Below are positions 4,321 through 60,878 of a DNA stretch of 64,000 bases, one piece after another; position 1 is the first letter of the stretch; each line of letters starts with the position of its first letter. The position numbers and the translations under genes are program-made. Source of the DNA: Lama guanicoe (lineage: Eukaryota); assembly GCA_013239625.1 (NCBI GenBank), contig MU053588.1, forward strand, positions 2,614,508-2,678,507, in the 5' to 3' direction. The notes below the pieces were generated by a model. It saw nothing but the letters and a program-made list of their open reading frames with translations, did no database searches and was not told the DNA's origin.

Positions 4321-6295
4321 CACCTCATTTCCCCCTATTTAAAATCTGTCCAATCATTTTCCCATGGGGAGACCGAATAAGTAGGAAACAAGGGTCTAAT
4401 TCTTCTCCCTGATCCTGTAGGAGAAGTCAGTCCCACCCCAACTCCATAAGTGTGGAGGGTGGATGTGGTCTGCTGACCTCAAGAGGTGGGAATAAAGGTT
4501 GACTCCTCCTCAAATGTCTCTTCCTCATCCAGGTAGTAGCTGGGAGACTAGGTGCTTAACTTCTCACAGCAGGGAAGTCATGAAGGGCTGAGCTTGGGGT
4601 AAAAGATATCTTGGGGTTGAGAGAAGATTCTAGGAGAGTTAATTACACCAAGGCACCTTCTAAAAAAAACGCTGTGAGAAAACGCAGGTGTATTTGAGTG
4701 AACAAAGGAGTCTCTAATTAGAATAAAGACCTTCATTCTGAGTTTTCTTGGCCCTAACTAGTCTCACCTTGGGGATGGACTATTCCTAAAACTGGGTCTT
4801 TGGGGGACGGTGAGGCACTTCGTCAAGTGGGAGCTACAGGGTCTCTTGATCTCACAAGTAACAGCTTCAGTTCAGATACTCTTTTCTGGGTGGTCAAGTG
4901 TCTGTGGGTGAGCTGGCCGATCACCTTGTAAATCTCTTCCTATACTTCTCCTGGACAAGCTAAGTCTTAGAAAACCTCATTGCAAAGGAGCAGCTTTCCA
5001 ATAAACCCTCAGAAAGGCTGGTGAGTCTGGAAATATTGGTAATGAAGAGTTGAGTCATTTTCATTCCACATCTAATCAGTAGGATCAAAAGCCGTATCTC
5101 AGAGATGCACTATTTAGTGAGACCGTCAAGTGTCATGGGAGTAAAAGTCCTATGTGGGCATTCCTTGGATACCTCATTCCAGGTTATTTTTGTGAGCAAG
5201 CATTTGTGATGGAGAGGGGGAAGCATGCGGAGCCTGAAACCTGTGTTACAAGTTGTGCCCATTGTTGATCTCCTTTGAGATACTGGTTACCCACTTCCTT
5301 TCTTAAATCTTAGTCTCCTAATGTCTGAGATGTGGGACTGGACTAGATAACATCTTTCAGAATCAAGACTAGTTTATGATATTTGCTCACCTCCCAAAGT
5401 TATTTTAAGAGCCAAGTGTAGTGATGACTTCAAAAGTGCTTTGCAGACGGGAAAGTTTATACATAGCCAGTTGCTTGGGAAAAGATTTTGTATGCAGCTC
5501 TCTGTCACTGAAAAGCTATGCTTCAAATTAACTCCGCACCCCTTCTTATTCACTTCCCACCACTGCCAGTTGTGCTCTATCTTCACAGCGCTTATCACTG
5601 GCATCCATTATCTCGCTTGTTTATTTTCTCCCCCAGTTGATGTCAGTGCCAGTAGAATAGGGGTGTCTCCCTTGTTTACTGCTTAATCCCAACCTGAGCA
5701 CCGTGCCTGTTCCATGGAAGGCACTCAGCAGATATTTATCATCTGGATGCTGGAGGATTTTGTAAACTCCCTTCAAGTGCTTTGGAAATTTTTAAGCCGT
5801 CATCAAGATCTGTCCTATTTTGATGAGTCTGAATGTAGAAGTAAAGCCTTTTGTGAATAGCAACTTCCATGTGAACATTCCAAAGGAACTGATATAATAC
5901 ATACTTTGTAATGTGGAAAATCACTTTATAACAATGCACTCTTCTAATGTATTTTGTAGACTGAAAACTTGTTATAAGTTACAAAATGCTTTGTAAACCA
6001 CACAGTGTTTATTTATACTCTATCCTATGTGCATCCTAGAATCTTTGTAACTATTAAAGTGCTTTGTAAATTTCCAAATACTTTAAAAAGTCGAAAGTGT
6101 TCTATAGACAATAAGGAGTTCTGTATTCTGCAAATATACTCTGTAAACATCACAAGGTTTTCCTTAGGGCAAAGGTGTTATTTATTTTTAACGTGAAGTG
6201 GTCCATCTACATGGAATTGTTTTGTAAGTGCAAAGTGCCCTTAGACTATAAAACACTTTATAATTTGGAAAAATAAAGAAATTGCCATATGCTTT

Positions 6296-6741
6296 TGATG
6301 GGGCTCAGGACAGACTACTCCAAAATATGCCACAGTGGCATACTGATTGTTTTGAATCTACTTGAGAAACACTTGGTACAAGAACACTCTGCCCCTCCTT
6401 TATTCCCCTGGCAGCAGGAAACAAAACGCCCCTGGGAAGATGGAGGGTATCCTTATTGCTGGAGATAGGGAATTTGAGGACACGAAAGCTGCATAAACAA
6501 ATTTTGTTATCTCTGCATTAATTTGCTACCCCCCACAAAAACCTCTTTGTTTTGTCAAGTCTTCACAAATAATTGATTCTTTGTCTAAAAAGGTATATAA
6601 ACAGCCTATTTTCATCATTTCTTAGGTCCCATACCTGTGGGGCCTCTGTATGCACAAAATTAAATTTGTTTGTTTCTTTCCTGTTACTTTGTCTTGTGTC
6701 CACTGGATTATTAGTTCGGCCAAAAGAACCTAGAACCAACA
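6296..6741 (+). mobile_element. 5' LTR of the ERV
   Basis: TG...CA termini, colinear with 29535-30044, followed by a PBS-like sequence. Confidence 0.85.
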
Positions 6742-7801
6742 GTTGGCACCATCAGCGGGATATTCACTGGCTGGAAGCTACTTTCTCCCAGGATGCCTGG
6801 AGCTGAGACCCGGGGACAAGTAAAAATTCTTACCACACCAGTCTCCTGGATCTCTCTCTGTGGGGTCCCATGGAAGCAAAAGTGATGGCAGCCCTTTTCT
6901 TTCTTTCTAAATTTAGATTAACAGGAGGAAATATTTGTGGAACCAGTTTCTCAGACATACCAACTCTGGTATTTGGTAAATGAATACTCTTGATTTTTAT
7001 TGATCCTTTCCCTCCCAGAGAGGGTCATTCTTTTTCTTTGTCTCTGTCTTTTGTTTTATTTATGTCTGATGAGAATACTCCTCTGGTCTCTATCAGCCAG
7101 AAGATGTAAATGCCTCAGGCAGGCAGCTGAGTAGGTTGTGGATCCAACTTTGGGAAATCTATAGAAATGGGTGGACTTTTCTTGGTCAGTCACTAATCTG
7201 TTTATAAGAGGGTGGAGGTAACACATGATTCCCTGTGCTTTCAAACGGCTGTTTACAAACCTGCCCTCATAGTTACTGCCTTTGCTTTATTAGGCTAACT
7301 CTGGGAGTAAACTTCCTGCACGTGATGAGGACTGCATCATTTTGAATCTCTTTTGGAGACACCTCTTGTGTCCTTAGTGATGCCATCAAAAGGCTTATTT
7401 GTCTGAGTTACTGTTAAGAAGATCTTATTCGTCAACAGCCAAATTTAGATGATGGAGCCTTTGAATTGGAAAAACTGCTAATAAATTTGAAAAATGAAAT
7501 TTAGAGAGCTTTCATACTGATATGACAGCTAACCATGAAGACTCCCTTAATAACATGGAGGGACAGATATTAGAACAAAAATCAAAGTCTATTCTAAACC
7601 CTTTCCTATTTTCCTTCAGACGTTGGCAGATACTGTAAAAGATCAAGACATCAGAAGTACAATTGTTCCATACTTCAAAAGAAAAAAAGAGGAAAAGATA
7701 ATGATATAACAGGTAGACTGAGGAACCCCTAACAAAATAAAAGGACAAAAAATTAGACTAAAACAAAAATCCAACATAAATGCCCCTTCTTAAAAGCTGC
7801 T

Positions 7802-8386: not shown

Positions 8387-10490
8387 AGGAAGAACAATTT
8401 TAAACAAAAATTACTCTGAAATTCCTAGGAGAAAACTTGCATGCTTTCTCTGTCCCTTGAATATAAATCTTACCATGTTTTTTGAAATGTAAACACACCA
8501 AGGGGTAATTAAAACTTTGCCTAAACTGAAAAAATAAATAAAAGGAACTATTTGGAAATTGGGTGAGTGAAAAACTTGAGGTTCCAGACAGAGAGTTGGC
8601 CAGCACAGTGGAGCAGGAAGACCCTGAGCTCACTACTCTCACAGGCACTCCAAAATTACAATTATTTACAGAGCAACTATCTGTGAGAGAGACTGGAATC
8701 TAGCAGAAAAGATGTTCTACAGATGAAGTTATAGAGAAGGAACCACAGGCAGAAGGATAAGAGGGGCAGAGATGCAGTATAGTCAAGTCCCAAGGGTGGG
8801 CAACCCACAAATGGGAGGGTGATTACAATTGTAGCGGCTTCCCCCAGGAGCAACAGGTCCAAGGCTCACATGAGGCTCCCAGCCCCGGGGTCCTGCATTG
8901 GGAATACAAGCAACTAGAACGTTTGGCTTTGAAGGCCAGCGAGGCTGTGGGAAATAGAGACTCCACTCTTAAAGGATGCGCACAAAATTTCACAAGCTCC
9001 AGGACCCAGGCATTTGAAAGGAACCTGGGTCAGATTCACCTACTGATCTTAGCCTCCCAGAGAGGCAGGAGGAAACTGCAGCTCACCCTGGGGACACAGA
9101 CATTGGTGGCAGCTGTTTCTGGGAGCTTGCTATACCACGTGGATACGGGTGCTGGCAAGTGTTGTTTTGGAATCCTCCATCTGGATTATTGGCTCCAGGA
9201 CACAGCCCCACTCACCAGCAGGCAGGCTGCCTTAAGATCTCCTGTAGCCACAGCCTCCCCAGGACATGGTCCTGTCCACCAAAGGGCACAAGTATCAGCC
9301 TCACACACCAGTGTGCCAGCACTAGCCCCAGGGCACCTGGGGCCCTGGAGTGAGAGACCAGACGACCGAGCTCCACCCACTGGTGGCAGACACCAGCACC
9401 AGGACTACTGCAACCCCACAGCCTGCTGAGTTGGGACCAAGCCCATTCACCATCAGGAAGGAGCCAGCCCTGAGAACCTGGGTCCCAGCCACACTCATCA
9501 GCAGATCAATACCAGCTCTGAGACAACTTACAGACCCTCAGCAAGCCACCCCAGGGTCTGGCCCCATCTTTGGGGTGCTTCAGGACTCCCCAGATCCTGC
9601 AGCCAGCTGTGTCAGGAACCAGCCCCACCCCACCAGTTGGCTAACACCAGCTCCATTACCCACAAGGCCCTGCTGCCAGAGATCCCAGGACCCAGCTTCA
9701 CCCACCAGGGACCCAGCACTAACCCTGGGATAACCCTGGGCCTCAGCCTCACCCACAAGCAGTCCAACAGCAGCTCTGAGACCCTTGGGCCTTGCAGCCA
9801 GGGACCCCAGAACACGGCTCTGCCCACCAGAGGGCCAGCACTAGCCCCAGTACCTGGCTTCATCTGCCAGTGGGTGGGCATCAACAATGGTCCCCTGTGC
9901 CCTGAGTCATCCTAACAGCGAGCGGACACCAGACCCAGGACAACCGCAACATAACAGCCCACTTTGTCAGAACCGAGCCAACCACCAGAAGACCAGGACC
10001 AGCCCAGGGACCCCCGGGTCATGTCCCTGCCCACCAGCAGGCCACCAGCTCTAGGAAATATATATATATATATATATATAAAACAAGAACTCTCAACAAA
10101 CCAAAGTCCAGGATCAGAGAGCTTCATGGGTGAATTCTACCAAATGTTTAGTGAAGAGTTAACATCTATCTTTCTCAAACTATTCCAAAAAATTGCAGAG
10201 AAACACTTCTTTTTTTTTTCATTTTTTAACTTTTTTATTGATTTATAATCATTTTACAATGTTGTGTCAAATTCCAGTGTTCAGCACAATTTTTCAGTCA
10301 TTCATGGACATATACACACTCATTGTCACATTTTTTTCTCTGTGATTTATCATAACATTTTGTGTATATTTCCCTGTGCTATACAGTGTAATCTTGTTTA
10401 TCTATTCTACAATTTTGAAATCCCAGTCTATCCCTTCCCACCCTCTACCCCCCTGGTAACCACAAGTCTGTATTCTCTGTCCATGAGTCT

Positions 10491-13400
10491 TTAGATTCCA
10501 CATATGAGCGATCTCATATGGTATTTTTCTTTCTCTTTCTGGCTTACTTCACTTAGAATGACATTCTCTAGGAGCATCCATGTTGCTGCAAATGGCATTA
10601 TGTTGTCGGTTTTTATGGCTGAGTAGTATTCCATTGTATAAATATACCACATCTTCTTTATCCAGTCACCTGTTGATGGACATTTAGGCTGTTTCCATGT
10701 TTTGGCTATTGTAAATAGTGCTGCTATGAACATTGGAGTGCAGGTGTCATCCTGAAGTAGATTTCCTTCTGGATACAAGCCCAGGAGTGGGATTCCTGGG
10801 TCATATGGTAAGTCTATTCCTAGTCTTTTGAGGAATCTCCACACTGTTTTCCATAGTGGCTGCACCAAACTGCATTCCCACCAGCAGTGTAGGAGGGTTC
10901 CCCTTTCTCCACAGCCTCTCCAGCATTTGTCATTTTTGGATTTTTGAATGACGGCCATTCTGACTGGTGTGAGGTGATACCTCATTGTAGTTTTGATTTG
11001 CATTTCTCTGATAATTAGTGATATTGAACATTTTTTCATGTGCTTTTTGATCATTTGTATGTCTTCCTTGGAGAATTGCTTGTTTAGGTCTTCTGCCCAT
11101 TTTTGGATTGGGTTGTTTATTTTTTTCTTATTGAGTCGTATGAGCTGCTTATATATTTTGGAGATCAAGCCTTTGTCGGTTTCACTTGCAAAAATTTTCT
11201 CCCATTCCGTAGGTTTTCTTCTTGTTTTATTTCTGGTTTCCTTTGCTCTGCAGAAGCTTGTAAGTTTCATTAGGTCCCATTTGTTTATTCTTGCTTTTAT
11301 TTCTTCTAGGAGAAAATTTTTGAAATGTATGTCAGATAATGTTTTGCCTATGTTTTCCTCTAGGAGGTTTATTGTATCTTGTCTTATGTTTAAGTCTTTA
11401 ATCCATTTTGAGTTGATTTTTGTATATGGTGTAAGGGTGTGTTCTAGCTTCATTGTTTTACATGCTGCTGTCCAGTTTTCCCAACACCATTTGCTGAAGA
11501 GACTGTCTTTATTCCATTGTATATTCTTGCCTCCTTTGTCGAAGATGAGTTGACCAAAAGTTTGTGGGTTCATTTCTGGGCTCTCTATTCTGTTCCATTG
11601 GTCTATATGTCTGTTTTGGTACCAATACCATGCTGTCTTGATGACTGTAGCTCTATAGTATTGTCTGAAGTCTGGGAGAGTTATTCCTCCAGCCTCTTTC
11701 TTTCTCTTCAGTAATGCTTTAGCAATTCTAGGTCTTTGATGGTTCCATATAAATTTTATTATGATTTGTTCTAGTTCTGTGAAATATGTCCTGGGTAATT
11801 GGATAGGGATTGCATTAAATCTGTAGATTGCCTTGGGCAGTGTGACCATTTTAACAATATTGATTCTTCCAATCCAAGAGCATGGAATATCTTTCCATTT
11901 TTTAAAGTCTTCTTTAATTTCCTTCATCAATGGTTTATAGTTTTCTGTGTATAATTCTTTCACCTCCTTGGTTAGATTTATTCCCAGATATTTTATTACT
12001 TTGGGTGCTATTTTAAAGGGGATTGTTTCTTTACTTTCTTTTTCTGTTGATTTATCGTTAGTGTAAAGAAAGGCAACTGATTTTTGAACATTAATTTTGT
12101 AACCTGCTACCTTGCTGAATTCTTCGATCAGCTCTAGTAGCTTTTTTGTGGACCTTTTAGGGTTTTCTATATATAGTAACATGTCGTCAGCATATAATGA
12201 CACTTTTACCTCTTCTTTTCCAATTTGGATCCCTTTTATTTCTTTCTCTTGCCTGATTGCTGTGGCTAGGACTTCCAGGACTATATTGAATAGGAGTGGT
12301 GATAGTGGGCATCCTTGTCTTGTCCCAGATTTTAGTGGGAAGCTTTTGAGTTTTTCACCGTTGAGAACTATGCTGGCTATAGGTTTGTCATATATAGCTT
12401 TTATTATGTTGAGATATGTTCCCTCTATACCCACTTTGGCGAGAGTTTTTATCATAAATGGGTGTTGAATTTTATCAAATGCTTTTTCTGCATCGATTGA
12501 GATGATCATGTGGTTTTTGTCCTTTCTCTTGTTGATGTGATGTATTACATTGATTGATTTGCGTATGTTGAACCAGCCTTGTGTCCCTGGGATGAACCCC
12601 ACTTGGTCATGATGTATAATCTTTTTTATGTGTTGTTGGATTCTATTTGCTAAAATTTTGGTGAGGATTTTGGCGTCTATGTTCATCAGTGATATTGGCC
12701 TATAATTCTCTTTTTTTGTAGTGTCTTTGCCTGGTTTTGGTATCAGGGTGATGGTGGCTTCATAGAATGAGTTTGGGAGTATTCCCTCCTTTTCAATCGT
12801 CTGGAAGAGTTTGAGAAGGACTGGTATGAGTTCTTCTTTGTATGTTTGGTAGAATTCCCCGGTGAAGCCATCCGGTCCTGGACTTTTATTTGTAGGGAGG
12901 TTTTTAATTGCTATTTCTATTTCCTTTCTAGTGATCGGATTGTTCAAGTGTTCAGTTTCTTCTTGATTCAGTTTTGGTGGACAGTATGTTTCCAGAAACT
13001 TGTCCATCTCCTCTAGGTTATCCAGTTTGGTTCCATATAGTTTTTCATAATATTCTCGTATGATATTCTGTATTTCTATTTTGTTTGTTGTAATTTCTCC
13101 ATTTTCCTTTCTTATTTTGCTAATTTGTGCTCTCTCTTTTTTCTTCTTTGTGAGTTTGGCCAGAGGTTTGTCGATTTTATTTACTTTTTCAAAAAACCAG
13201 CTTTTGGTTTGGTTGATTTTTTCTATGGTCTTGTTAATCTCTATTGTATTTAATTCCTCTCTGATCTTTATTATTTCCTTCCTTCTGCTGCTTTTTGGGG
13301 CTTTTTGTTCTTCTTTTTCTAATTGATTCAGGTGGTGGGTTAACTTGTTTATTTGAGATTGTTCTTCTTTTTTGAGGAAGGCCTGTATCGCTATAAACTT

Positions 13401-14288
13401 CCCTCTTAGCACTGCCTTTGCTGTGTCCCATAGGTTTTGAGTGGTTGTGCTTTCATTATCATTTGTCTCAAGGTATTTTTTAATTTCAGCTTTGATTTCC
13501 TCATTGATCCATTGTTTTTTCAATAACATATTGTTTAATCTCCATGCTTTTCTTTTTTTCTCCTTTGTTTCTCTGTTGTTGATTTCCAGTTTCATGGCAT
13601 TGTGGTCAGTAAAGATGCTTGAGATAATTTCTATCTTCTTAAATTTGTTGAGGTTTCTTTTGTGTCCAAGTACATGATCGATCCTGGAAAATGTTCCATG
13701 TGCACTTGAAAAGAATGTATATTCTATTTTTTGGGGGTGTAATGCTCTGAAAATATCCACCAAATCTAGTTTTTCTATTGTAGTATTTAATTTCTCTGTT
13801 GCCTTGTTTATTTTCTGTCTGGAAGATCTGTCTAGTGATGTTAATGCAGTGTTAAAATCTCCAACTATGATTGTATTCCCATCAATATCCCCCTTTATCT
13901 CTGTTAGTAATTCTTGTATGTACTTAGGTGCTCCTATATTGGGTGCATATATATTAACGAGTGTAATATCTTCATCTTGTATCACTCCTTTAATCATTAT
14001 AAAATGTCCTTCTTTATCTTTCTTTATGGCCTTTGTTTTAAAGTCTATTTTGTCTGAAATCAGTACTGCAACACCTGCTTTTTTGGCTTTTCCATTTGCA
14101 TGGAATATCCTTTTCCATCCTTTCACTCTCAATCTATATGTGTCCTTCTCCCTAAAGTGGGTCTCTTGTATGCAGCATATTGAAGGTTCTTGCTTTATTA
14201 TCCAGTCTGCCACTCTATGTCTTTTGACTGGAGCATTTAGTCCATTAACATTTACAGTAATTAATGATAGATGTGTGTTTATTGCCAT
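10491..14288 (-). CDS. LINE-1 ORF2p (endonuclease / reverse transcriptase), 1265 aa
   Basis: Uninterrupted ORF; EN motifs NVNGL, QETH, GDFN, SRIDH, TDHN; RT motifs QGCPLSP and YADD; C-terminal CWRGC...HCWWEC. Confidence 0.97.
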
Positions 14289-14686
14289 TTTGAACTTATC
14301 TTTGCAGTTGAATTGGTATATCCTCTTTGTTCCTTTCTTCTTCCTTTTGTGGTTTGGTAATTTTCCTTTGTATTATCATGGATTTTATTTAATTTTTGTG
14401 ACTCCCTTGTAAATTTTTGACTTGTGGTTACCCTTTTTTGTAAATCTATTAACCTATACCCGTTTTTAATAAACTGATAATAACATGATCTCAAACCCAT
14501 CCTACTGTTAAAAAAATTTAAAAAAAGAAAGAAAAAAAATTCTATATTTCCCTGCCTCCCTCTCCCACTCTCAGTGATTTGTATGTCTTCTTTTATAATT
14601 TCGTGTTTTCTTTATTTGTAATTCATGAGTTATCACCTTTCCAGTTGTACGTTTCTCATTTCTGTAGCATCCTGCTGCTTTTCTAT

Positions 14687-15589
14687 TTAGAATAGCCCTT
14701 TCAATATTTCTTTTAGCATGGGTTTAGTGTTGCTAAACTCCTGCAGCTTTTTTTTGTCTGTGAAACTCTTTATTTCTCCTTCTATCCTAAAGGATAGCCT
14801 TGCTGGATAAAGTATCCTAGGCTGCATCTTTTTTTCATTCAGGGCTTTGAATATATCTTGCCACTCCCTTCTGGCCTGTAGTGTTTGTGTAGAGAAATCA
14901 GCTGAGAGCCTTATGGGGGTTCCCTTGTAGTTCACTCTTTGCTTTTCTCTTGCTGCCTTTAGAATCATTTCTTTATCCTTGACTCTGGCCATCTTGATTA
15001 TGATATGTCTTGGTGTGGGTCTATTTGGGTTCTTCCTGTTTGGGACCCTCTGAGCTTCCTGTACTTGGATATCTGATTCCTTCTTTAAGTTTGGGAAGTT
15101 TTCAGTCATGATTTCTTCAAAAACCTTTTCAATCCCCTTTGCTCCTTCTTCCCCTTCTGGGACCCCTATTATGCGAAGATTGGGACGCTTTATATTATCC
15201 CATAGGTCCCTTATGCTATTATCATTATTTTTTATTTGCTTATCTTGTAGTTCTTCTGAATGGGTGCTTTCTGTTGCCCTGTCTTCTAGATCACTAATTC
15301 GTTCCTCTGCATTAACTAGTCGGCTTTGCACAGCTATTAGATCATTCCTCATCTCTGTCAATGAGTTTACCCATTCTGCTTGGCTCTTCTTTATAGCTTC
15401 AATTTCATTTTTGACATATTTTATTTCTCTAAGCACTATCTCTTTTAATTCCTTCAGCAATTTGATCACTCCTTTTTTGAAATCTTGATCTAGTAGGCTA
15501 TCGATGTCTATTTCATTGAGCTTTCTTTCAGGGGATTCCTCTTGTTCTTTTAATTGGGAAAGGTTTCTCTGCTTCTTCATCTTGCTCAT
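14687..15589 (-). CDS. LINE-1 ORF1p (RNA-binding chaperone), 300 aa
   Basis: Uninterrupted ORF; coiled coil, then KRPNLRIIGVPE, RHIIIK, ARREW and YPARLSF motifs. Confidence 0.95.
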   Translation of the reverse strand: MSKMKKQRNLSQLKEQEESPERKLNEIDIDSLLDQDFKKGVIKLLKELKEIVLREIKYVKNEIEAIKKSQAEWVNSLTEMRNDLIAVQSRLVNAEERISDLEDRATESTHSEELQDKQIKNNDNSIRDLWDNIKRPNLRIIGVPEGEEGAKGIEKVFEEIMTENFPNLKKESDIQVQEAQRVPNRKNPNRPTPRHIIIKMARVKDKEMILKAAREKQRVNYKGTPIRLSADFSTQTLQARREWQDIFKALNEKKMQPRILYPARLSFRIEGEIKSFTDKKKLQEFSNTKPMLKEILKGLF

Positions 15590-17759
15590 ACCTCTCTGGC
15601 ACTGTGGTTTATGGAGTATCAGTTGTCTATTTTGGATCTTAAGGATTTTATCTATCTAATGCCTATTTAGGAATAGAACTTAGGAAAAAAAGAGAAAGAA
15701 ATAATAAGAGAGAGAGAGAAAGATTTTTAAAAGAAGGGAGAAAGAGGCTTTTAAAACAGTGTATAATGAATGATAGAAGAGCGAGTTGAAGCAGAGTATT
15801 AATCGGGTTGAGACGTCCTTTTAAAACCTTTAAAAAAAGAAAAGGAAAAGAAAAAAAAGGGGTGGGGAGATGAATAGATGTATTTGAAGCCTGTGTCTAA
15901 TCAATAACAGGACATCAAAACCCAAGAGAAATAGAAATGAATTAAGAAGTAAAAATTAAGAGAGTAATTGAAAATAGAACAGGTAAAAACAGATTTAAGA
16001 ACAAAACAGAAAACAAACAAACAAACAAACAAACAAAAAACAAAACAAAAAAAGGGGTTGTCGGTGTTCTCCTGGAGTCTGTGTGCTTTTAATGTGAAGT
16101 CCTTCTGTCTTCGTCCTGTTTTGGAAGCTCAGCTTGTTTTCATAGGCCCTCCGTTGGCGCCCTCTTCTGTGCTGCTCCCAGCACCTGTCGGCAAGCGGAT
16201 CGCGCCTCCTCCTAACACGGGGTCAGATGCAGCTCTCCTCTGCTGCGGGCGGGCGGGTCACTGCCCCTCCGGATGCCGCAGTCAGATGTTGCAGACTGGC
16301 CAGGCAGGAGGGTGAGTCGTGCCCCCTCCCAGCACCTCAGTCAGGGGCTGTGTTCCTGCCCGACAGGCGGTGGGGGGGGTGGCCGCTCTCCCTCTGCCTG
16401 CGCCGCCGGTAGCTCCGCTGCTCTGTGCGGCTGTGCGCTCCGCCCTGGCCGCGCTCCGCGGGTGGGCTCGGGGAAGGCCAAGGGGCAGCCTCGTCCCTGC
16501 TCCGAGCCAAGGCCCAGCTCCTTGTTTGTCTTTGTGGAGCAAGTTCTCTGAGGGACCAGGATGGTCCCACCTGCCCAGGGCTGTAGGCCCGTCTCAGTCT
16601 GGCCCTTGAGACTGCTGAGCCCTTCGGTGCGGATGCAGGTTTCGCCCCTGCCCCCGCCTGGGTGCTAAGCGCCGGAGAATATGGCGGCTGTGCCTGGGCC
16701 CCGCCTCTCTTCCCCTGAAAAGTCTCCGTGGGTTTTCAGAGATGGGGGCGTGCACCCTTCCCCCCGAGAGCACACATCAACCCTGCTGTTTTATGGAGGG
16801 CCCAGGTTGTTCTGTCCTGCACACCCACAGCCCCGGCACCCAGCCCCTTGCAGTCCCCTGGAGCTGCCTCCGTGCAGCCGCCCCCGTCCTCCGCCCGGCT
16901 TGTGCAGCCTGGCCCTGCCCGCCGCTGCCGGCCCGCGTCTCAGGCTGGGTGTCGGGGGGACGCTCTGTGCCCGTTTAACTTAGTTCTGTCAGACAAGGGC
17001 TGCTCTGTACAGATCCGAGCCTCGTGGGCTCCCCCTCCGTCACGCTGGCCTCTGAGTTGGAGAGGGGAGACCCAGCGAGCAAGCGCCAGTCCTCCTTTGC
17101 CGCTCCCTCCCCGCGGGACCCGTCCCGCGCTGCTTTGCCTTTTGTTCTTTCTTTTTTCCTTTTCTCCTACCAGATTTTTGGCGTCTTTATCTTTTGAAGA
17201 GGGCGATGTTCTGTCGGAGTTCCGCAGGTGCTCTGGTTGGCTGAGTGGTTCTGTAGATGTGGATCTTGGTGTATTTGTGGGAGAGGGTGACTTACAAGCA
17301 TCCTTCTACTCCGCCATCTTGCCTCTTCTCTGAGAAACACTTCTTAACTTATTCTAAGAGGCCAGCTTTACCCTGATACCAAAACCAAACAAACATAATC
17401 ACAAAAAGAAAATCACAGGCCAATATCACTGATGAACATAGTTGTAAAAATCCTCAACAAAATATTAGCAACTCAAAGTGAACAACTTATTAAAATGTTC
17501 ATACACCATGCTCAAGTGGGATTTATCCCAGGGATGCAAGGATGGTTCAATATCCACAAATCAATGAATATGATGCATCACATTAACAAACTGAAAAATA
17601 AAAACCATATGATCATCTCAATAGATACAGGAAAAGCTTTCGACAAAACTCAACATCCATAAAAGATAATGGGCATAGAAGGGACACACTTCAACATCAT
17701 AAAGGCCATATATGACATGCCCACAGCTAACATCATATTCAACAGTGAAAAGCTGAAAG

Positions 17760-20700
17760 CATTTCCTCTAAGATCAGGAACAAGACAAGGATGCCCACTC
17801 TCACCGTTTTTATGCAGTATATAATTGAAAGTCCTAGTTACAACAGTCAGACAAGAAAAAGAAATAAAAGGAATCCAAATTGGAGAGGAAGAGGTAAAAC
17901 TGTCATTGTTTGCAGATGACATGGTACTACTATACGTAGAAAATCCCAAAGACTCCACCAAAAAACTATTAGAACTCATCAATGAATTCAATAAAGTTTC
18001 AGGATACAAAATTAATACACAGAAATCTCTTGCATTTCTATACACTAACAGCAAAATATCAGAAAGAGAAATTAAGAAAACAATTTCATTTACCTTTGTA
18101 TCAAAAAGAATAAAATACCTAGGAATAAACCTAACTAAAGAGGCAAAAGACCTGTACCTTAAAAACTGTAAGACACTAATGAAAGATTTTGAAGGTGAGA
18201 CAAACAGATGGAAGGATATACTGTGTTCTTGGATTGGAAGAATCAGTATTGTTAAAATAGGACCATATTACTGTATTACCCAAGGTAATCTACATAGTCA
18301 GTGTAATCCCTAGCAAAATACCAATGGCGTTTTTCACAGAACTAGAACAAACAAATCTAATATTTGTGTGGAAACACAAAAATCCTTGAATACCAAAAGC
18401 AAATTTGAGAAAAAATAGCAGAGCTGGAGGGATCACACTCTTTGATTTCATACTATACTACAAAGCTACAGTAATCAAAACAGCATGTTACTGGCACAAA
18501 AACAGACACATAGATCAATGGAACACAACAGAGAGACCAGAAATAAACCTACACACTTATGGTCAGTTAATCTACAATAAAGGAGGCAAGAATATACAAT
18601 GGGGAAATAACATTCTCTTCAATAAGTGGTACTGGGAAAACTGGACAACCATTTGTAAAAGAATGAAAGTAGAACACTTTCTCACAGCATATGCAAAAAT
18701 AAACTCAAAATGGATTAAAGACCTAAAAGTAAGACTAGAAACCATAAAACTCCTAAGAGAAAATATAGGAAGAATTCTCTTTGACATAAATCATAGCAAT
18801 ATTTTGGGGGGTCTGTCTCCTAAGGCAAAGGAAACAAAAGCAAACATAAACAAATAGGACCTAATTAAACTTAAAAGCTTTGCACAGCAAAGGAAACCAT
18901 CAACAAAATGAAAAGACAACCTACTGATTGGGAAAAAATATTTGCAAATGATATGACTGACAAGAGGTTAATATCTGAAACAATATCATATAATTCAATA
19001 TCAAAAAAACAAACAACCCAATTTAAAAATTGGCAGAAGATCTGAATAGAAATTTTTTCAATTACAACATCCAGATGGCCAACAGGTACATGAAAAGATG
19101 TTCAACATCACTAATCATCAGAGAAATGCAAATCAGAAACATGATGAGCTATCACTTCACACCTGTCAGAATGGGTATTATCAATGAGACTATAATAATA
19201 TCACTCACGTGGAATCTAAAAAAATAAAAATAAAAAGAGGACACTGATGAACTCATCTACAAAACAGAAACAGACTCGCAGACATAGTACACAATCTCAT
19301 GGTTACTGGGGGAACGGGGGTGGGAAGGGATAAATTTGGGAGTTTGAGATTTGCAAATGATAACTGCTATATATAAAAATAGATAAAAAACAAATTTCTT
19401 CTGTATAGCACAGGGAACTTTATTCAATATCTTGTAATAACCTTTAATGAAAATGAATATAAAAATGAATGTATGTATATATATGCATGACATTTCCTCT
19501 AAGATCAGGAACAAGACAAGGATGCCCACTCTCACCGTTTTTATGCAGTATATAATTGAAAGTCCTAGTTACAACAGTCAGACAAGAAAAAGAAATAAAA
19601 GGAATCCAAATTGGAGAGGAAGAGGTAAAACTGTCATTGTTTGCAGATGACATGGTACTACTATACGTAGAAAATCCCAAAGACTCCACCAAAAAACTAT
19701 TAGAACTCATCAATGAATTCAATAAAGTTTCAGGATACAAAATTAATACACAGAAATCTCTTGCATTTCTATACACTAACAGCAAAATATCAGAAAGAGA
19801 AATTAAGAAAACAATTTCATTTACCTTTGTATCAAAAAGAATAAAATACCTAGGAATAAACCTAACTAAAGAGGCAAAAGACCTGTACCTTAAAAACTGT
19901 AAGACACTAATGAAAGATTTTGAAGGTGAGACAAACAGATGGAAGGATATACTGTGTTCTTGGATTGGAAGAATCAGTATTGTTAAAATGGGACCATATT
20001 ACTGTATTACCCAAGGTAATCTACATAGTCAGTGTAATCCCTAGCAAAATACCAATGGCGTTTTTCACAGAACTAGAACAAACAAATCTAATATTTGTGT
20101 GGAAACACAAAAATCCTTGAATACCAAAAGCAAATTTGAGAAAAAATAGCAGAGCTGGAGGGATCACACTCTTTGATTTCATACTATACTACAAAGCTAC
20201 AGTAATCAAAACAGCATGTTACTGGCACAAAAACAGACACATAGATCAATGGAACACAACAGAGAGACCAGAAATAAACCTACACACTTATGGTCAGTTA
20301 ATCTACAATAAAGGAGGCAAGAATATACAATGGGGAAATAACATTCTCTTCAATAAGTGGTACTGGGAAAACTGGACAACCATTTGTAAAAGAATGAAAG
20401 TAGAACACTTTCTCACAGCATATGCAAAAATAAACTCAAAATGGATTAAAGACCTAAAAGTAAGACTAGAAACCATAAAACTCCTAAGAGAAAATATAGG
20501 AAGAATTCTCTTTGACATAAATCATAGCAATATTTTGGGGGGTCTGTCTCCTAAGGCAAAGGAAACAAAAGCAAACATAAACAAATAGGACCTAATTAAA
20601 CTTAAAAGCTTTGCACAGCAAAGGAAACCATCAACAAAATGAAAAGACAACCTACTGATTGGGAAAAAATATTTGCAAATGATATGACTGACAAGAGGTT

Positions 20701-21221
20701 AATATCTGAAACAATATCATATAATTCAATATCAAAAAAACAAACAACCCAATTTAAAAATTGGCAGAAGATCTGAATAGAAATTTTTTCAATTACAACA
20801 TCCAGATGGCCAACAGGTACATGAAAAGATGTTCAACATCACTAATCATCAGAGAAATGCAAATCAGAAACATGATGAGCTATCACTTCACACCTGTCAG
20901 AATGGGTATTATCAATGAGACTATAATAATATCACTCACGTGGAATCTAAAAAAATAAAAATAAAAAGAGGACACTGATGAACTCATCTACAAAACAGAA
21001 ACAGACTCGCAGACATAGTACACAATCTCATGGTTACTGGGGGAACGGGGGTGGGAAGGGATAAATTTGGGAGTTTGAGATTTGCAAATGATAACTGCTA
21101 TATATAAAAATAGATAAAAAACAAATTTCTTCTGTATAGCACAGGGAACTTTATTCAATATCTTGTAATAACCTTTAATGAAAATGAATATAAAAATGAA
21201 TGTATGTATATATATGCATGA
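17760..21221 (+). repeat. Direct tandem duplication, 2 x 1731 bp, of L1 ORF2-3'UTR
   Basis: 17760-19490 repeated at 19491-21221; one difference seen (18259 A vs 19990 G). Confidence 0.95.
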
Positions 21222-21959
21222 CTGGGACATTATGCTGTACAACAGAGATTGACACAATGTAACTGACTATGCTACGATTAAAATAAAAAAAACAAAAACT
21301 ACTCAAAAAATAAAGTCTATTAAAAAAAATCCTTCCTAGTCAACCTCCCACCCAAATAATCTCTTTCAACCTTTGATCTGTTTACTGTCTTTAAACTTAA
21401 CTTAGAAAACATTTAAATACAAAATTTTTAAGGAAAAAAAGAGTACCATAACAAATGAAAACAAATTAAAATTTAAAAAGCCAGAAAAATAGCTTAAGAT
21501 GATAACTGATTTTGCCTAGTGTCTAATAGAATTTTTGTAGATGATTATTGAGAATAGGTGATATGAAGGGATGGAAATGGAATAAGAGTTTTGGGGTGAA
21601 CCTTTTTTCCCTAATGACTGGTTTATGGTATCTCTACTTAAAAAGTTTCCCAAATCTTTGGTAACTTCTACCCTTCTAATTTTGCTAAATTGGATTAAAT
21701 GTTGGGAATTTGTTGAATGTCTGGATCATTTCCAAATAGCATTAACTACTAAAACACTGATTGGTGGACAAGTCTAAATTTACCTACTTTTGATCTCTAA
21801 CTATAGAGGAACTAAAGATGTTTGAGTTTGTTAGTAAACATGTCTCAGGCCCCAATGAAAAATTGTGCCATGGGAAAATGTGTGTTTCTAGAAATTGTGA
21901 AATGCGTTCATAGATTTGCCAGTCCAGAGAATGCTGATGTAACAGATAGTTTTTGGCTC

Positions 21960-22883
21960 TCTGCTTTCTCATCTTGGCTGGAGGGCAACGATTACAAACA
22001 GTGAGGGGAAATTTGAAGGAAGAGCTGAGAGTGCAGGGCAGGCCAGAAGAGGGCATGGGGACAGTTGGAGTGAGAAGCATGGATTGACTCTGCACTGGCT
22101 GAGTGTACTGATGCTGCAAGGCTGCAGCCGGGGCAATAGGCAACTTTTTGGAGGGTGGAGGTGATGGGCCACCCATGAGTGCTCTCTCTTCCTGTAAAAT
22201 GAAACAACATATTTGAAAACCACTGCTCTTGTACCACAGGGAACTGAGCAACAAAAGGGATTAAGCATCCAGCTAAAAAGGCCAATACAGAAACAACCAC
22301 CATAAGCGGGTGGGAAGGGATAAATTTGGGTGTTTGAGATTTACAAATGTTAACCACTATATATAAAAACAGATTTTTAAAAAAGTTTCTGCTATATAGC
22401 ACAGGGAACTATGTTCAATATCTTGTAATAACCTTTAATGAAAAATAATATGAAAGCGAATATATGTATATATGTGCATGATTGGGACATTGTGATGTAC
22501 ACCAGAAATTGACATATTGCAACTGACTGTACTTCAATTTAAAAAAAAACAACACCCTTTTTGTCCTGCACACACACAGGCTGTAATCACTCTCTGAGAG
22601 GCTCATATTTTACTGCCTTGTCCTTTTAGATTTTGCAGCCAGGCAGCAGTCTTTGTTAAAAAGAATAATGCCCCATTTCTTATAACTACTGCATGGCTAA
22701 GAATTCAACTGGCAGCTTCCCAGATATTTATGGCTCTGCCACAAGTTTAGGACTTACTGTCTCATCTCTCAAATCTTTATTCTGTCTACTCAACTTAGAG
22801 AAACCCTTTTCAACAATAATGAGATCTTGCTGCTTCCGCCTGTTCTGTCATTCCCAGTCTAGCAGAGCAACGTCATGATGAAC
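21960..22883 (-). pseudogene. Two-exon fragment of an unidentified protein-coding gene inside the ERV, antisense to it
   Basis: Exon 22883-22758 (ctacag| ... |gtaagt, 126 nt) and exon from 22191 (ttttacag|) splice in frame; one TGA in the first exon. Confidence 0.55.
22305..22550 (+). mobile_element. 5'-truncated L1 3'UTR fragment
   Basis: Matches the L1 3'UTR at 21050-21290; ends in poly-A. Confidence 0.85.
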
Positions 22884-24059
22884 CTGTAGACACAAGTGAA
22901 TCTCCTACCGAAATTTTCCAAGAGCCTGTGGATTATTTTAACCATATTATGTACAAGGAGTTTATATTGATTTACTGTAGTGCACAGGCAATTATGCTAT
23001 CCTCCCAGAGTAAATCTGTAATTATTCTGTAACAACTGTGTTGCATCATTTCTTTTCTAGGAAGCTTTGTAAATTTTTTGAAATTGAGAAAGTAATATTT
23101 GACCAGTAAAGTTGAAATTGTCAGCAAAAAAACCAGGAAGGTTTTTTTCTGTTTTCTGTTTTTTGTTTTTTATTGCAAACCTGTTTTCTAAAAGAGCTAA
23201 GGTTTTCTGTTTTGTTTTGTTTTGTTTTGTTTTGTTGTTTTTATGGTTCCTTCTTTAACAAAACTAGTAGAAATAATAAGGATGAAAGAAAATGACTTTA
23301 TATGAAAATAGGATATATGTTTTTGGTTCAAGGAAGTATAAATAATGAAGGTGTCTTTTTGGTAAGGGAGAAAAAAATAATTTTGTCCTAAAGAAAAAAG
23401 ATTGTTCCCGAATAAGAAAGGGAAAAGATAGGATAAAACCTAAATGGACACAGAAAGTTGTAGAAGATGGTGGAAGAGAACCTTGTGAAAGGAATTATAT
23501 GTGTGATCAAGCTGAATAAGATTGAATGGATTTGATATGGGATTTTTAAACTAAGCTTTAGTATCAACACTGTACTTACATAAAACTGGAACTTAATTGT
23601 CTTTCATCTGTTAAAAGGGCAAAGTTTGAGTGAACTATTATCTCCTGATAAGAGATTATGAAAGGATTTTCCTTACCACTTTAAGTAATCTGCTTGAGAG
23701 CAAAGATTTTATAGTGCGTCACACTGTATAGGTAGGTCTTCGGTTACGTAAGGAATTTTAGCCTTTTCAATATACATTCAAAGAGCTAAGTTTTGCTCAG
23801 AACTATGTAACTTTTTCCATTTGCCTGTGAAGTCTTTAACTAGATAACTAAGTACGGTGACACAGTGGCTTATGATTCTATTTGACCAAGTGTTTTGAAA
23901 CCTTTTGGTATTTTTACAAACTCACCCCCTACTCAATCAAGAGAACTCAAATTCTAAATGAAACCTTTTTGACCTCAGACTAATTTGGGGATTTTTTGGA
24001 GAGTCTTTGGAACATCTCAAAAGATTTGTTCTTTCTTCCTTATAAAAAGATAGATGTTA

Positions 24060-27000
24060 CAGATTTCAGTTCAAGATGGCAGAGTAATAGGACCACGAGC
24101 TCGCCTTGCCCCATGACTACAACAAAACCACAACTGACTTTTAAACAACCATCGGGGGAAAAAAAAGAAACTGGAACCTAGCAAAAAGGATCTTCTTCAA
24201 CTGGAAACATAAAGAGGGAACCATAGCAGGATGGTAGGAGGGGTGTGCTCGTGATATAATTGAGCCCCATACCAGGTGGTTGACCCACAAGCTGAAGAAT
24301 AGTTAACTCGAAAAGGCCCTCCCACAGGAGTGAGAGTTCTGAGCCCCACGTCAAGCTCCCCAGCTGGAGTTCTGGCAGTGGGAGGAGGAAGAGACCCCAG
24401 GACATCTGGTTTTGAAGGCCAGTGGGGCTTGGCTCTAGGAGCCCCCTGGGACTGGGGAAACAGAGACTTAGGAAGCGCACACAGAATCTTGCATGAGCCA
24501 GGCCCAAGGCAGTGATTTCATGGAAACCTGGGCCAGACCTGCCTGCTGGTTTTGGAGGGTCTCCTGGGGATGTAGGGGACGGCTGCGGCTCACCCAGGGG
24601 ACATAAAAGCTGGTAGCAGACATTCCAGGAGTGTTCATTTATATGAGCTTTCCTGGAGGCTGATATCTTGATTGGATCATTAGCACCAAGACCAAGCACC
24701 AACCAACAGCCCATAGCCCCACCCAACAGCTGGGATGCCTCAGGCCAAACAACCTACTGAGTTGGAACAGCCCCACCCATCAGCAGACTCCCTGAGGCTC
24801 TAGACACGATCCTACCCACAAGAGGTCCAGTACTAAGCTTCACCCAGCAGTGTGCAGACACTGCTCCCTCCTGCCAGGAAACCTGCATAACCCTCTAGTC
24901 CAGCCTCATCCACCAGGGGGAAGATACCAGAAATAAGAAAACAACAATCCCAGTGCCTGTGTAAGGAATCCACAAACACAGGCCAGACTCTACATTGAGA
25001 CCAGCTGGAACCCGGCCCTTGGGTGACAAGAGAGAGGTGTTCTGCTGGGATGCATAGGACAACCCACAGAGGGCCACATCTCCAAAGTCAATGTAACTAA
25101 CCTACCTAAAAATTCAAATAGAAACATAGACAATATGAGGCAGCAGAGGAATATCTTCCAGGCCAAGGCACAAGATAAAAATCCCAGAAGAAAAAATAAG
25201 TGATGAGGGGATAGGCAATTTATGCAAGAAAGAGTTTAGAATAATGATGGCAGAGATATTTAGAGAACTCAAGAGGGATATAGATGCACAGAACAAAGTT
25301 TTTAGCAAAGAGTTAGAAAATATAAAGAATACCCAAACAGAGTTGAAAAATAAAATCACTGAAATGAATAACACACTAGAAGGAACCAAGAATAGACTAA
25401 ATGAGACAGAAGAATGGATCAATGAGCCAGAAGACAGATTAGTGGAAATCACTACTGCAGAACAGAAAAAAAGAAAAAAGAATGAGAAGAAATGAGGATA
25501 GTTTAAGAGAACTCTGGGACAACATGAAGCATGCTAATATTTGCATTATAGGGGCCCCAGAAAGAGGAGAGAGAGAGAAAGGACCTGAGAAAAATTTTGA
25601 AAATATAATGACCAAAAACTTTCCCAACTTGAGAAAGGAAACAGTCACCCAAGTCCAGGAAGTGCCAAGAGTTCCACACAGGATCTACCCAAAGAGGAAC
25701 ATGTGGAGGCACATGGTAATCAAATTGACAAAAAATAAGCATAAGTAGAAAATATTAAAATCAGCAAGAGAAAAGCAATGTATAACATAGAAGGGAACTC
25801 CCATAAGGTTATCAGCTAATTTTTCAGCGGAAACTCTACAGGCCAGAAAGGAGTGACATGATATATTTAAAGCGATGAAAGGGAAAAACTTACAACCAAG
25901 AATACTCTACCCAGCAAGGCTGTCATTCAGATTTGATGGAGAAATCAAAAGCTTCACAGATAAGCAAAAGCTAAAAGAATTCAGCACCACCAAACTAGCT
26001 TTACAAGAAATGTTAAAGGAACTTCTCTAGTCATCAAACCACAAGAAAAGAGAACAAAAAGAATAAAGAGAAAAAAAAAAAAAAGCTACAAAAGATTGCT
26101 TTGGCAGTTTGGGGTCTTTTATGGTTCCATATACATTTTGGAATTGTTTGTTCTAGTTCTGTGAAAAATGTCGTGGGTTTGTTAGCAGGAGTTGCACTGG
26201 ATCTGCAGATTGCTTTGGGTATTATGGCCAGTTTGATAATGTTGATTCTTCCAATCCAAGAGCACAAGATGTCTTCCCATTTCTTTATATCATAATCAAT
26301 TTCTTTCATCAATGTTTTAGTTTTCAGATTATAGGTAACCTCCTTGGTTAGGTTTATTTCTAGGTATTTTGTTGTTTTTGATGCAATGGAAATGTTTATG
26401 CCAGTTATAAAGTTCTGGTTTTTGAGCTGGGAAAAAAAAAGTGAATGAAGGGCCACAAATGGCAAAACATCCTTTTTTATGGGTGAGTTGTATTCCATCG
26501 CATATACGTGCTATAGCTTTTTTATCCATTCATCTATTGATGTGCACTTAGGATGCTTCCATGTCTTGGCAACTGTAAATAGTGCTGCTGTTAATAGCAG
26601 GGTGTATCTCTTTGAATTAATGTTTTTGTTTTTCTTAGCTGTATGCCCAGGAGTGGAATTGCTGGGCCATGTGGTGGTTCTGTTTTTGGATTTTTGAGAA
26701 ACCACTATATTGTTTTCCATAGTGGCTGCACCAATTTACATTACCACCAACAGTGCACAAAGGTTCCCATTTCCTCACATCCTTGCCAACATTTGTTATT
26801 TGGGGTTTTTTTTGTTTGTTTGTTTGTTTGTTTTTTGATGATGGCCATTCTGACAGGTGTAAGATGGTATCTAAGTGTGATTTTGATTTGCATTTCCCTG
26901 ATATTGGTGATGCTGAGCAGCTTTCCAAGTTCCTGTTGGCCATCTGCATTTCCTTTTTTTGAAAAATGTCTGTTCAGTTCTTCTGCCCATATTTTAAATA

Positions 27001-27497
27001 GGCTGCTTGGCTGGTTGTTTGCTTTTTAATTGAAGTACAGTTGATCTAAAAAATGTTGTATTAGTTTCTGGTGTACAGCATGGGTGGAATTGGAGGGCAT
27101 TATTCTAAGTGAAACAATTCAGACAGAGAAAGACAAATACTGTAAGATATCACTTACATGTAGAATCTAAAAAAAAATACAACAAACTAGGAATATAACA
27201 GAAAAGAAACAGAGTCACAGATGTAGAGAAGGAACTAGTGGTTACCAGGGGGAGAGGGAAGGGGGAAGGGAAAGATGGAAGTGGAGGATTAAGAGGTACA
27301 AACTATCAGGCATAAAATAAACTTCAAAGATGTACTGTACAACATGGGGAATAGGGCCAATATTTTATAATAACTACAAATGGAGTATAACCTTTAACCT
27401 TCACTATATTGTATGCCTGTAACATATAATATTGTCAATCAACTATACTTCAATTTTTAAAATATGATATTGTAAAATAAATAAATAAATAAAGTTT
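24060..27497 (+). mobile_element. Rearranged decayed LINE-1 (5'UTR + ORF1, inverted ORF2 pieces, 3' end)
   Basis: caagatggc start; decayed ORF1 ~25135-26030; minus-strand ORF2 pieces 26093-27000; plus-strand 3' end from ~27080; diverged TSD aaaaagatagatgtta (24044) / aaaaagagaggtgtta (27498). Confidence 0.8.
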
Positions 27498-29534: not shown

Positions 29535-30044
29535 TGATGGGGCTGAGGGTAGCCCACCCCCAAAATATGCCGAACTGGCATATTGATTATTTTGAATTAA
29601 AATTACTCAAGAAACAGTCAGTACAAGAAGAACACTCTGACACTCTTTTGTTCTCCTGAAAGTAGGGAGGGAAAAAAAAAAGCTCCCATGGGAAGGTATC
29701 TTCCACATGCTGGGAAGATGGAGGGCATCCTTGTTCTGGAATTAAAGAATCTGAGGCAGAGAAATCTATATAAGCAGTCTTTATTACTTCTTCATTAATT
29801 TGCTACTCCAAGCAAAAACCCCTTTGTTTTGTCAAATCTTCACCAAAAAAATAAGTCTTTTTCTAAAAAGAAATATAAATAGCCTGCTTCAGTCGTTTCT
29901 TAGGTCCCATACCTATGAGACCTGTGTTATGTATGACATTAAATTCGTCTGTTACTCTCCTGTTAATCCATCTCAGGTCAGTTTGATTATATCAAGCCAG
30001 TCAAAAGAACCAGAATGGTTGAGGAAATTTTTTCCTCCCCTACA
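29535..30044 (+). mobile_element. 3' LTR of the ERV
   Basis: Preceded by purine tract; ends cccctaca; followed by TSD cttt. Confidence 0.85.
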
Positions 30045-30432
30045 CTTTATAATGAATGATTTACAAGAGGCAAAGTCTCTGATAGATTGTCAAGTGCTGA
30101 GCTCACTAAAAACAAAGTAATTTGTAAACAGCAGTATGTTTGTTGCTGATAACCATTGTTAATAAGCAATTAAAAGTAATTCTCAAGAGTGTACCTTGTG
30201 AAGGACATGATCACCTCAGAAATGGTCTTGAACATCCTGACGCATTTTGTCGCCAAGTGTCAGGCACAGAGCAGAGGCCCAACAAGTGTTTGTTGAATGA
30301 ATAAATATCTTGTAAACTCTAAAGTACTTTGAAAACTCTAGAATGATTTTAAATATGAGCCCATAAATTACATTAGCTATACTATAGATTGTAATGTATG
30401 AGGTTTGATAATCCCTGATTGATTGTAGACTG

Positions 30433-30807
30433 TGTTAAAATCAAGGACCAACAGAGATCAATCTTGAAAATTCCCTGAGCAAACAAGCCAGTTTAGTCAT
30501 CCAAACAAAGCTTAACTTATCTTATTTTGCAAGCATAAGGAAAACTTGAACTGTTTCCCAAGGTTGATATCAGGTAACCACTAAAAATTCAAATGTTATA
30601 ATTCATCACTGCAAAGAAAAAATAGTCACCACTTTCTCACTATAATAAGCTGCTTTATACCAACGTATCCCTGAACCTCATTCCATGTTTTGTTTTGAGT
30701 GCTCCACGTTTGCAAACTCTATTTTTGGTATGTGAACAGCGAACATTACCAATTTTTTACTACAGTGATTCATTGATTTTACTTTGGCTGTTTCTGCACC
30801 TTTGACA
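30433..30807 (+). mobile_element. Probable solo LTR
   Basis: TG...CA bounded ~375-bp segment with LTR-like composition interrupting the AT-rich array; family not identified. Confidence 0.4.
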
Positions 30808-31140
30808 ATTATAAAGTATTTTGTCATTTTTATGCCCTCGGACATCTATAGGACAGTGTTGGCAGGTTTTGTTGGAAAATACCTAGATGCTTAGAAATTG
30901 CCAGTTTATTTCTAAAATCCTGCATACACACTGAAGTGGTTTAAGACGGCCAACTACATGGTGAAGCATAAAATATTTGGTGAAGCGTAAAAGACTTTTA
31001 AAACAGTTAATGGTTTTTTAAATCAATTCTGCTAAAGTGATTTGTAAATGACAAAGTATTTGTAAATGGCTGTGTATATTTTACAATTAGTTTTAAAGCA
31101 GAACCGCAAATACAGAGGGATGCTTATAAAGTTATCTGTT

Positions 31141-49377: not shown

Positions 49378-60878
<11,501 letters not shown>

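Follow-up and report, generated by a model that had tools for sequence, protein, structure and literature searches.

The question raised by this locus is whether an endogenous retrovirus captured a piece of a host gene together with its intron. In a 64,000-nucleotide stretch of guanaco DNA, here called the window, a GC-rich segment inside a provirus looks on the minus strand like two exons with an intron between them. A reading made from the letters alone (the sequence-only reading) had proposed that a fragment of a cellular or transposon-derived gene was captured antisense by the retrovirus, which would explain the survival of the intron, and that the retroviral family may have spread it. We examined the provirus, the segment, its candidate exons and their possible relatives. 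The reading that we prefer, at a probability of about one half, is that the segment is non-coding cargo carried by a non-autonomous ERV1 element at its integration, with a two-exon look that arose by chance or from non-coding splice sites.

An old non-autonomous provirus encloses the segment

Self-comparison of the window gave one pair of LTRs (Table 1). The same four bases, CTTT, flank both LTRs on their outer sides as a 4-bp target duplication, and the LTRs therefore bound one provirus (6296-30044). The pair of LTRs, their TG...CA ends and the short duplication of the target identify it as the provirus of an LTR retroelement. A TGG-starting, primer-site-like stretch was seen by eye after the left LTR, as was a purine tract ahead of the right LTR, so that the provirus reads on the plus strand and the segment is antisense to it. 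The two LTRs were identical in 343 of 444 aligned columns (77%, K2P 0.28). If neutral change is taken to run at 3.0-1.5e-9 per site per year, this divergence would correspond to an age of roughly 47-93 million years. The three main pieces of the interior were compared in 18 frames with the retroviral Pfam families, and none of the frames matched at E up to 1. The provirus is thus real, old and non-autonomous, an ERV1-like element in which gag, pol and env could not be detected. Its LTR and interior appear to resemble the MER4/MER34 group of ERV1.

Table 1. Features of the provirus and of the segment within it (positions in the window)
Feature	Position	Strand	Remarks
5' LTR	6296-6745	+	3' end shorter than that of the other LTR; CTTT at 6292-6295
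Old L1	about 8580-21330		split by the young full-length L1
Young full-length L1	10215-17333	-	clear target duplication; nested in the older L1 within the provirus
Internal sequence to the left, AT-rich and non-coding	21335-21955	+	GC 20-39% per 100 nt; no match to Pfam at its cut-offs
Candidate exon 2 / open frame	21784-22191	-	135 codons, rich in Pro, Ser and Gln at the start; acceptor score 10.7; not closed by a donor within the segment
Odd segment	21955-23170		GC richer than the flanks; approximate edges
Candidate intron	22192-22757	-	566 nt; about 315 nt without the L1 tail
L1 3' end, 5'-truncated	22303-22553	+	short A tail, imperfect target duplication; within the candidate intron
Candidate exon 1	22758-22883	-	126 nt, 42 codons, one in-frame stop at codon 12; acceptor score 8.2, donor score 6.9
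Internal sequence to the right, AT-rich and non-coding	23170-24059	+	cut at 24060 by an L1
L1 insertion	24060-27490		pieces in both orientations; imperfect target duplication of about 17 nt at the bounds
3' LTR	29535-30044	+	TG...CA ends; purine tract just upstream; CTTT at 30045-30048

Most of the 23.7 kb between the outer ends of the LTRs consists of later insertions, which comprise at least four L1 insertions and also SINEs. In the young full-length L1, ORF1 is open at 14687-15655 and ORF2 at 10491-14372 (1293 codons from stop to stop). The L1 sequence at 17760-19491 is repeated in tandem at 19491-21222, a 1.73-kb duplication with 99.94% identity that is either very recent or an assembly artefact.

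The window is mammalian; one of its CYP exons shares 98% identity with CYP2B proteins of the camel. On the minus strand, at about 37800-60900, there are exons from two or more CYP2B-like genes. Two tRNA-Ala(agc) calls by ARAGORN (58273-58345 and 60081-60153) lie within a repeat that has several copies in the window, and are likely a tRNA-derived SINE. Just right of the provirus, at about 30410-30830, a possible second solo LTR was seen by eye.

The region around the segment (21335-24055) was nearly unchanged, with 0.90-0.94 of the sampled words, in 16 of the 24 sequencing runs listed. Since it recurs across runs of four organisms and eight studies, it is not an assembly artefact. Four RNA or RNA-like runs contained 0.05-0.15 of the sampled words and give no evidence either way.

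Edges and composition of the segment

The segment stands out by its base composition. GC per 100 nt reaches 55% at 22001-22200, compared with about 20-39% in the flanks. Its edges near 21955 and 23170 are approximate; no alignment to a related element fixes them, and the one near 21955 is based on composition and on a putative likeness of the adjoining interior to the MER4/MER34 group. A scan of the edges for a target duplication, a poly(A) stretch or terminal inverted repeats found none of them, which speaks against a DNA-transposon insertion and makes an L1-driven one unlikely. The combination of poly(A) tail and target duplication that marks an L1-mediated retrocopy or transduction is thus absent at the segment, which has internal sequence of the same provirus on both sides.

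The two flanks align weakly and colinearly with each other (21415-21696 with 23371-23668); the score was reached in 1 of 300 local shuffles, for a pair chosen from 2625 compared. The alignment is no more than suggestive; it fits foreign DNA set between two internal modules that are related, and the modules may be an ancient duplicated part of the element. A degenerate repeat of about 85 nt at the two edges of the segment was discarded as chance. It was matched in 11 of 2000 shuffles, but 448 of the 2625 real pairs of internal stretches score as high.

The candidate intron contains the 3' end of an L1 that is 73-87% identical to all five of the other L1 3' ends in the window that were compared. 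With this divergence the segment is not recent, provided that the L1 tail was inserted in place.

The two-exon configuration is gene-like locally and weak at window scale

All elements of the two-exon structure in the sequence-only reading, from the acceptor through exon, donor, intron and second acceptor to the open frame, were found in the sequence at the positions given there. On the minus strand, the first acceptor, tctacag, ends at 22884, the donor, gtaagt, starts at 22757 and the second acceptor, tttcattttacag, ends at 22192 (scores in Table 1). Sites that score at least as high are present in the window at 272 of 9322 AG for the exon-1 acceptor, at 210 of 6460 GT for the donor and at 92 of 9322 AG for the exon-2 acceptor. 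The splice and codon tables behind these scores are approximate frequencies.

The configuration was then scored as a whole. A gene score was maximised over all choices of acceptor, donor, second acceptor and phase in 21940-23000, with no threshold taken from the observation. The maximum fell exactly on 22883/22757/22191 in phase 0 and amounted to 31.1, of which about 26 points come from the splice sites; the other strand reached 14.1. The score was reached in none of 400 whole shuffles and in 1 of 400 shuffles within 250-nt blocks (z 3.27). Ranks by the raw score are biased by GC (52 of 246 tile-strands of the window were as high), and a z value per tile was used instead. A z of 3 or more was found in 5 of 116 tile-strands. 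Three of these lie on CYP exons, and two (441+ and 59857+) have no gene that could be recognised by eye in three frames. One or two such matches are therefore expected per window. Canonical splice sites are present in a compatible arrangement, and the configuration is gene-like locally but weak at the scale of the window. A separate test, in which the observed values themselves served as thresholds (0 and 3 of 2000 shuffles), was rejected as circular; the window holds six such donor-acceptor pairs.

The configuration also has matching splice phases and an open frame. Exon 1 has one stop in the candidate frame compared with 3 and 6 in the other two minus-strand frames, and a frame with at most one stop arises in 58% of shuffles of exon 1. 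Over exon 2, all three minus-strand frames are open (21784-22260, 21969-22340 and 21992-22408), so that neither the open frame nor the 0/0 phase match carries weight as evidence. The first 54 codons (22030-22191) contain no stop in any of the three frames, which occurs in 1% of dinucleotide shuffles and is not a mark of coding. The last 56 or so codons of the exon-2 frame run antisense beyond the left edge of the segment, over the AT-rich interior. Codon bias alone was not significant (best-of-three-frames p 0.11 for exon 1 and 0.22 for exon 2); two CYP exons, tested as a control, were matched in none of 5000 shuffles each. No closing donor above a score of 2 was found in exon 2 before 21787, and no polyadenylation hexamer after it down to 21300.

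Neither candidate exon has a detectable protein relative

The two exon peptides were searched one by one, each on its own side of the predicted junction. Neither of the two matched a Pfam family. In the PDB, exon 2 had no match and exon 1 had one, a coiled coil at E 1.7. Two protein searches gave 173 and 8 candidates, none of which was confirmed as a relative. With phmmer, exon 2, which is low in complexity, matched one of 1.84 billion representative proteins, an unrelated repeat-rich protein with 29% identity over 41 residues, which we regard as spurious. As a positive control, a CYP exon of the window with 42 residues, equal in length to exon 1, found 515 proteins (515 of 547); its family is highly conserved, and annotated mammalian proteins are plentiful in the collection. 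The word-based searches went up to 2000 residues, and the one with exon 1 covered proteins of 75-2000 residues; it would miss a donor protein longer than that, as well as a gene that is lost or evolves fast. A piece that had decayed at 0.14 substitutions per site would be expected to share five-residue words with a living parent. A protein homologue, as the captured gene in the sequence-only reading would have, was thus not found for either exon at the protein level, with the exons searched apart and with a control that worked. This outcome of the check that the reading had itself set tends to speak against it.

A protein language model listed low-complexity proteins of chordates as look-alikes, among them the NUT family (0.81) and a PRRC2C fragment (0.81). 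The NUT, PRRC2C and Period look-alikes were rejected, as they are below 0.9, concern exon 2 only, show low recognition (1196) and compare with shuffled proteins that reach 0.8 a third of the time. Pfam holds a model for NUT, which did not match the peptides. Possible resemblances to the coiled regions of bZIP, bHLH, TFDP and NUT proteins had no support from Pfam or the PDB.

Nucleic acid collections were searched as well. In metagenomes, 157 pattern matches came down to one locus, a bacterial ORF that shares one short peptide and is no relative. None of 9 pattern matches in viral contigs and none of 125 in prokaryote genomes was confirmed. Motif scans with the flanks gave nine viral loci, none related beyond the motif, and no match in two further scans. 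Rfam returned three matches at E 1.2-2.3, far below its cut-offs. The copy in this window is the sole one observed, in viral, metagenome and prokaryote collections that hold almost no mammalian DNA.

Comparison with known captures

That retroviruses can capture the RNA of their hosts is established. For LTR-mediated retrocopies, PMC5131818 describes human FAM8A1 in HERV-K, three human and eight mouse cases in all, and proposes template switching. They resemble our segment in that a non-viral sequence lies between the internal sequences of one LTR element, without L1 hallmarks. Those retrocopies were found by the exon-exon junctions of a named parent (PMC5131818), whereas here the candidate intron is present, the orientation is antisense and no parent was found. 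In crocodilians, CrocERV29 and CrocERV31 carry mRNA-derived ORFs of KIT ligand and nectin3 in 9 and 6 copies, respectively, with purifying selection reported for KIT ligand (PMC4299795). Host-like, coding-looking sequence in an old ERV is the common feature. The crocodilian cargo is recognisable and multi-copy (PMC4299795), whereas our segment has one copy, no homologue, a stop and no significant codon bias.

The mosaic ERV1 elements in the neighbourhood of MER4-MER34 (HEPSI; PMC5753468, PMC4724089) share with our provirus the 4-bp duplication and the AT-rich, gene-less interior. The LTR divergence of 13-31% given there for HEPSI covers our provirus, whose tentative assignment to the group follows from an apparent resemblance of LTR and interior. 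Class 2 templated sequence insertions (PMC5110952) likewise have no target duplication or poly(A), and their template may be intronic or intergenic. They are described as young polymorphisms with a mapped donor, whereas our segment is old, is common to four organisms and has no mapped donor.

Discussion

The absence of a protein relative, the non-significant codon bias, the three open frames and the gene-less tile-strands with equal scores all support a non-coding origin of the segment, and a coding origin is disfavoured. Against this stands that the unbiased score picks the exact two-exon configuration (1 of 400 local shuffles) and that exon 1 has a single stop. On the non-coding reading, the segment would have entered the ERV lineage when the reverse transcriptase switched template to an RNA packaged in the same particle, either cellular or from another retroelement. 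It would then have been copied along with the element by the proteins of another virus and, after integration, have decayed neutrally for roughly 47-93 million years. Today it probably does nothing. Mosaic interiors are described as common in ERV1 (PMC4724089; PMC5753468 for Harlequin), and ERV1 clusters without ORFs are reported in alpaca (PMC8605555). We favour cargo at integration on priors and not on direct evidence; that the segment belongs to the family would also follow from priors.

A possible, if doubtful, explanation is that the segment is a one-off insertion after integration, with or without true exons, either as a patch of genomic DNA or of reverse-transcribed unspliced RNA in a double-strand break (class 2) or as a small DNA-level duplication. 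The edges without target duplication, poly(A) or terminal repeats are those of class 2 insertions, for which intronic and intergenic templates are described (PMC5110952), and the provirus has taken at least four L1 insertions. The frames, if real, also look young. From the LTRs, in which 10 of 11 gaps are frameshifting, an indel rate of 0.011 per base per lineage was obtained, and about 4 frameshifts are expected over the 363 nt of a frame of the age of the provirus (P for none 0.017, for exon 1 alone 0.24). The one stop observed in the frames is as expected at this age (mean 1.5). Frameshifts in exon 2 would be invisible under three open frames, however, and the argument for youth therefore comes down to exon 1 (P 0.24); moreover, a young coding patch should easily match its parent protein. 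For a given kilobase of target, patches of this length would also be rare, whereas an ERV of this kind usually has a non-coding mosaic interior.

The capture proposed by the sequence-only reading, in which the ERV lineage took up an intron-bearing piece of a protein gene antisense and its family spread it, with a donor that is lost, fast-evolving or very large, is unlikely in our view. It is consistent with a best configuration that is antisense, with phase 0/0, an exon length that is a multiple of three and a z of 3.3, and with the documented capture of host RNA by ERVs (PMC4299795, PMC5131818). In retroviral vectors, reverse orientation is described as protecting introns from loss (PMC6775231, PMC2266726). 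The proposed mechanism of intron survival is accordingly coherent in principle (PMC6775231), but the strand is a one-in-two observation. The look-alikes at 0.81 stay below the level at which the tool counts them as more than a lead, and shuffled proteins come close to them; the NUT model found nothing. No protein relative appeared despite the working control, the phase and the open frame are uninformative, a closing donor is missing and a single copy was seen. What stood of this reading is its setting, antisense within a real non-autonomous provirus and distinct from gag, pol and env by Pfam in 18 frames; its coding origin is disfavoured, and a spread by the family would be conjecture. It is very improbable that the old L1 with its end near 21330 brought in the segment as a 3' transduction, or that the segment is a separate unrecognised transposable element. 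In favour, the segment lies about 600 nt downstream of the poly(A) of this L1, which is not directly followed by a clear target duplication. Against it, no match to the flank before the L1 with an A tail was found at the far edge, which is T-rich on the plus strand, and AT-rich sequence like the right flank separates the L1 tail from the segment. There are also no inverted ends, and no Pfam or Rfam family was matched.

On the preferred reading of non-coding cargo, the import is little: the locus is another dead provirus without genes. The boldest version of the alternative, which we consider distinctly unlikely, is that a laurasiatherian ERV1 family captured two exons backwards with their intron, from a gene since lost or no longer recognisable, and multiplied them within the genome. 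A literature search, mostly at the level of listings and with sparse coverage of subscription journals, gave no mammalian case of an intron-bearing, antisense, multi-copy capture. If true, this boldest version would be a natural instance of intron survival by reverse orientation and the fossil of a vanished gene. If such an antisense, intron-bearing gene piece exists in many copies, screens for LTR-mediated capture by exon junctions, the method of PMC5131818, would miss this class of events, and the non-coding interiors of non-autonomous ERV1 elements would be shown to preserve host genes.
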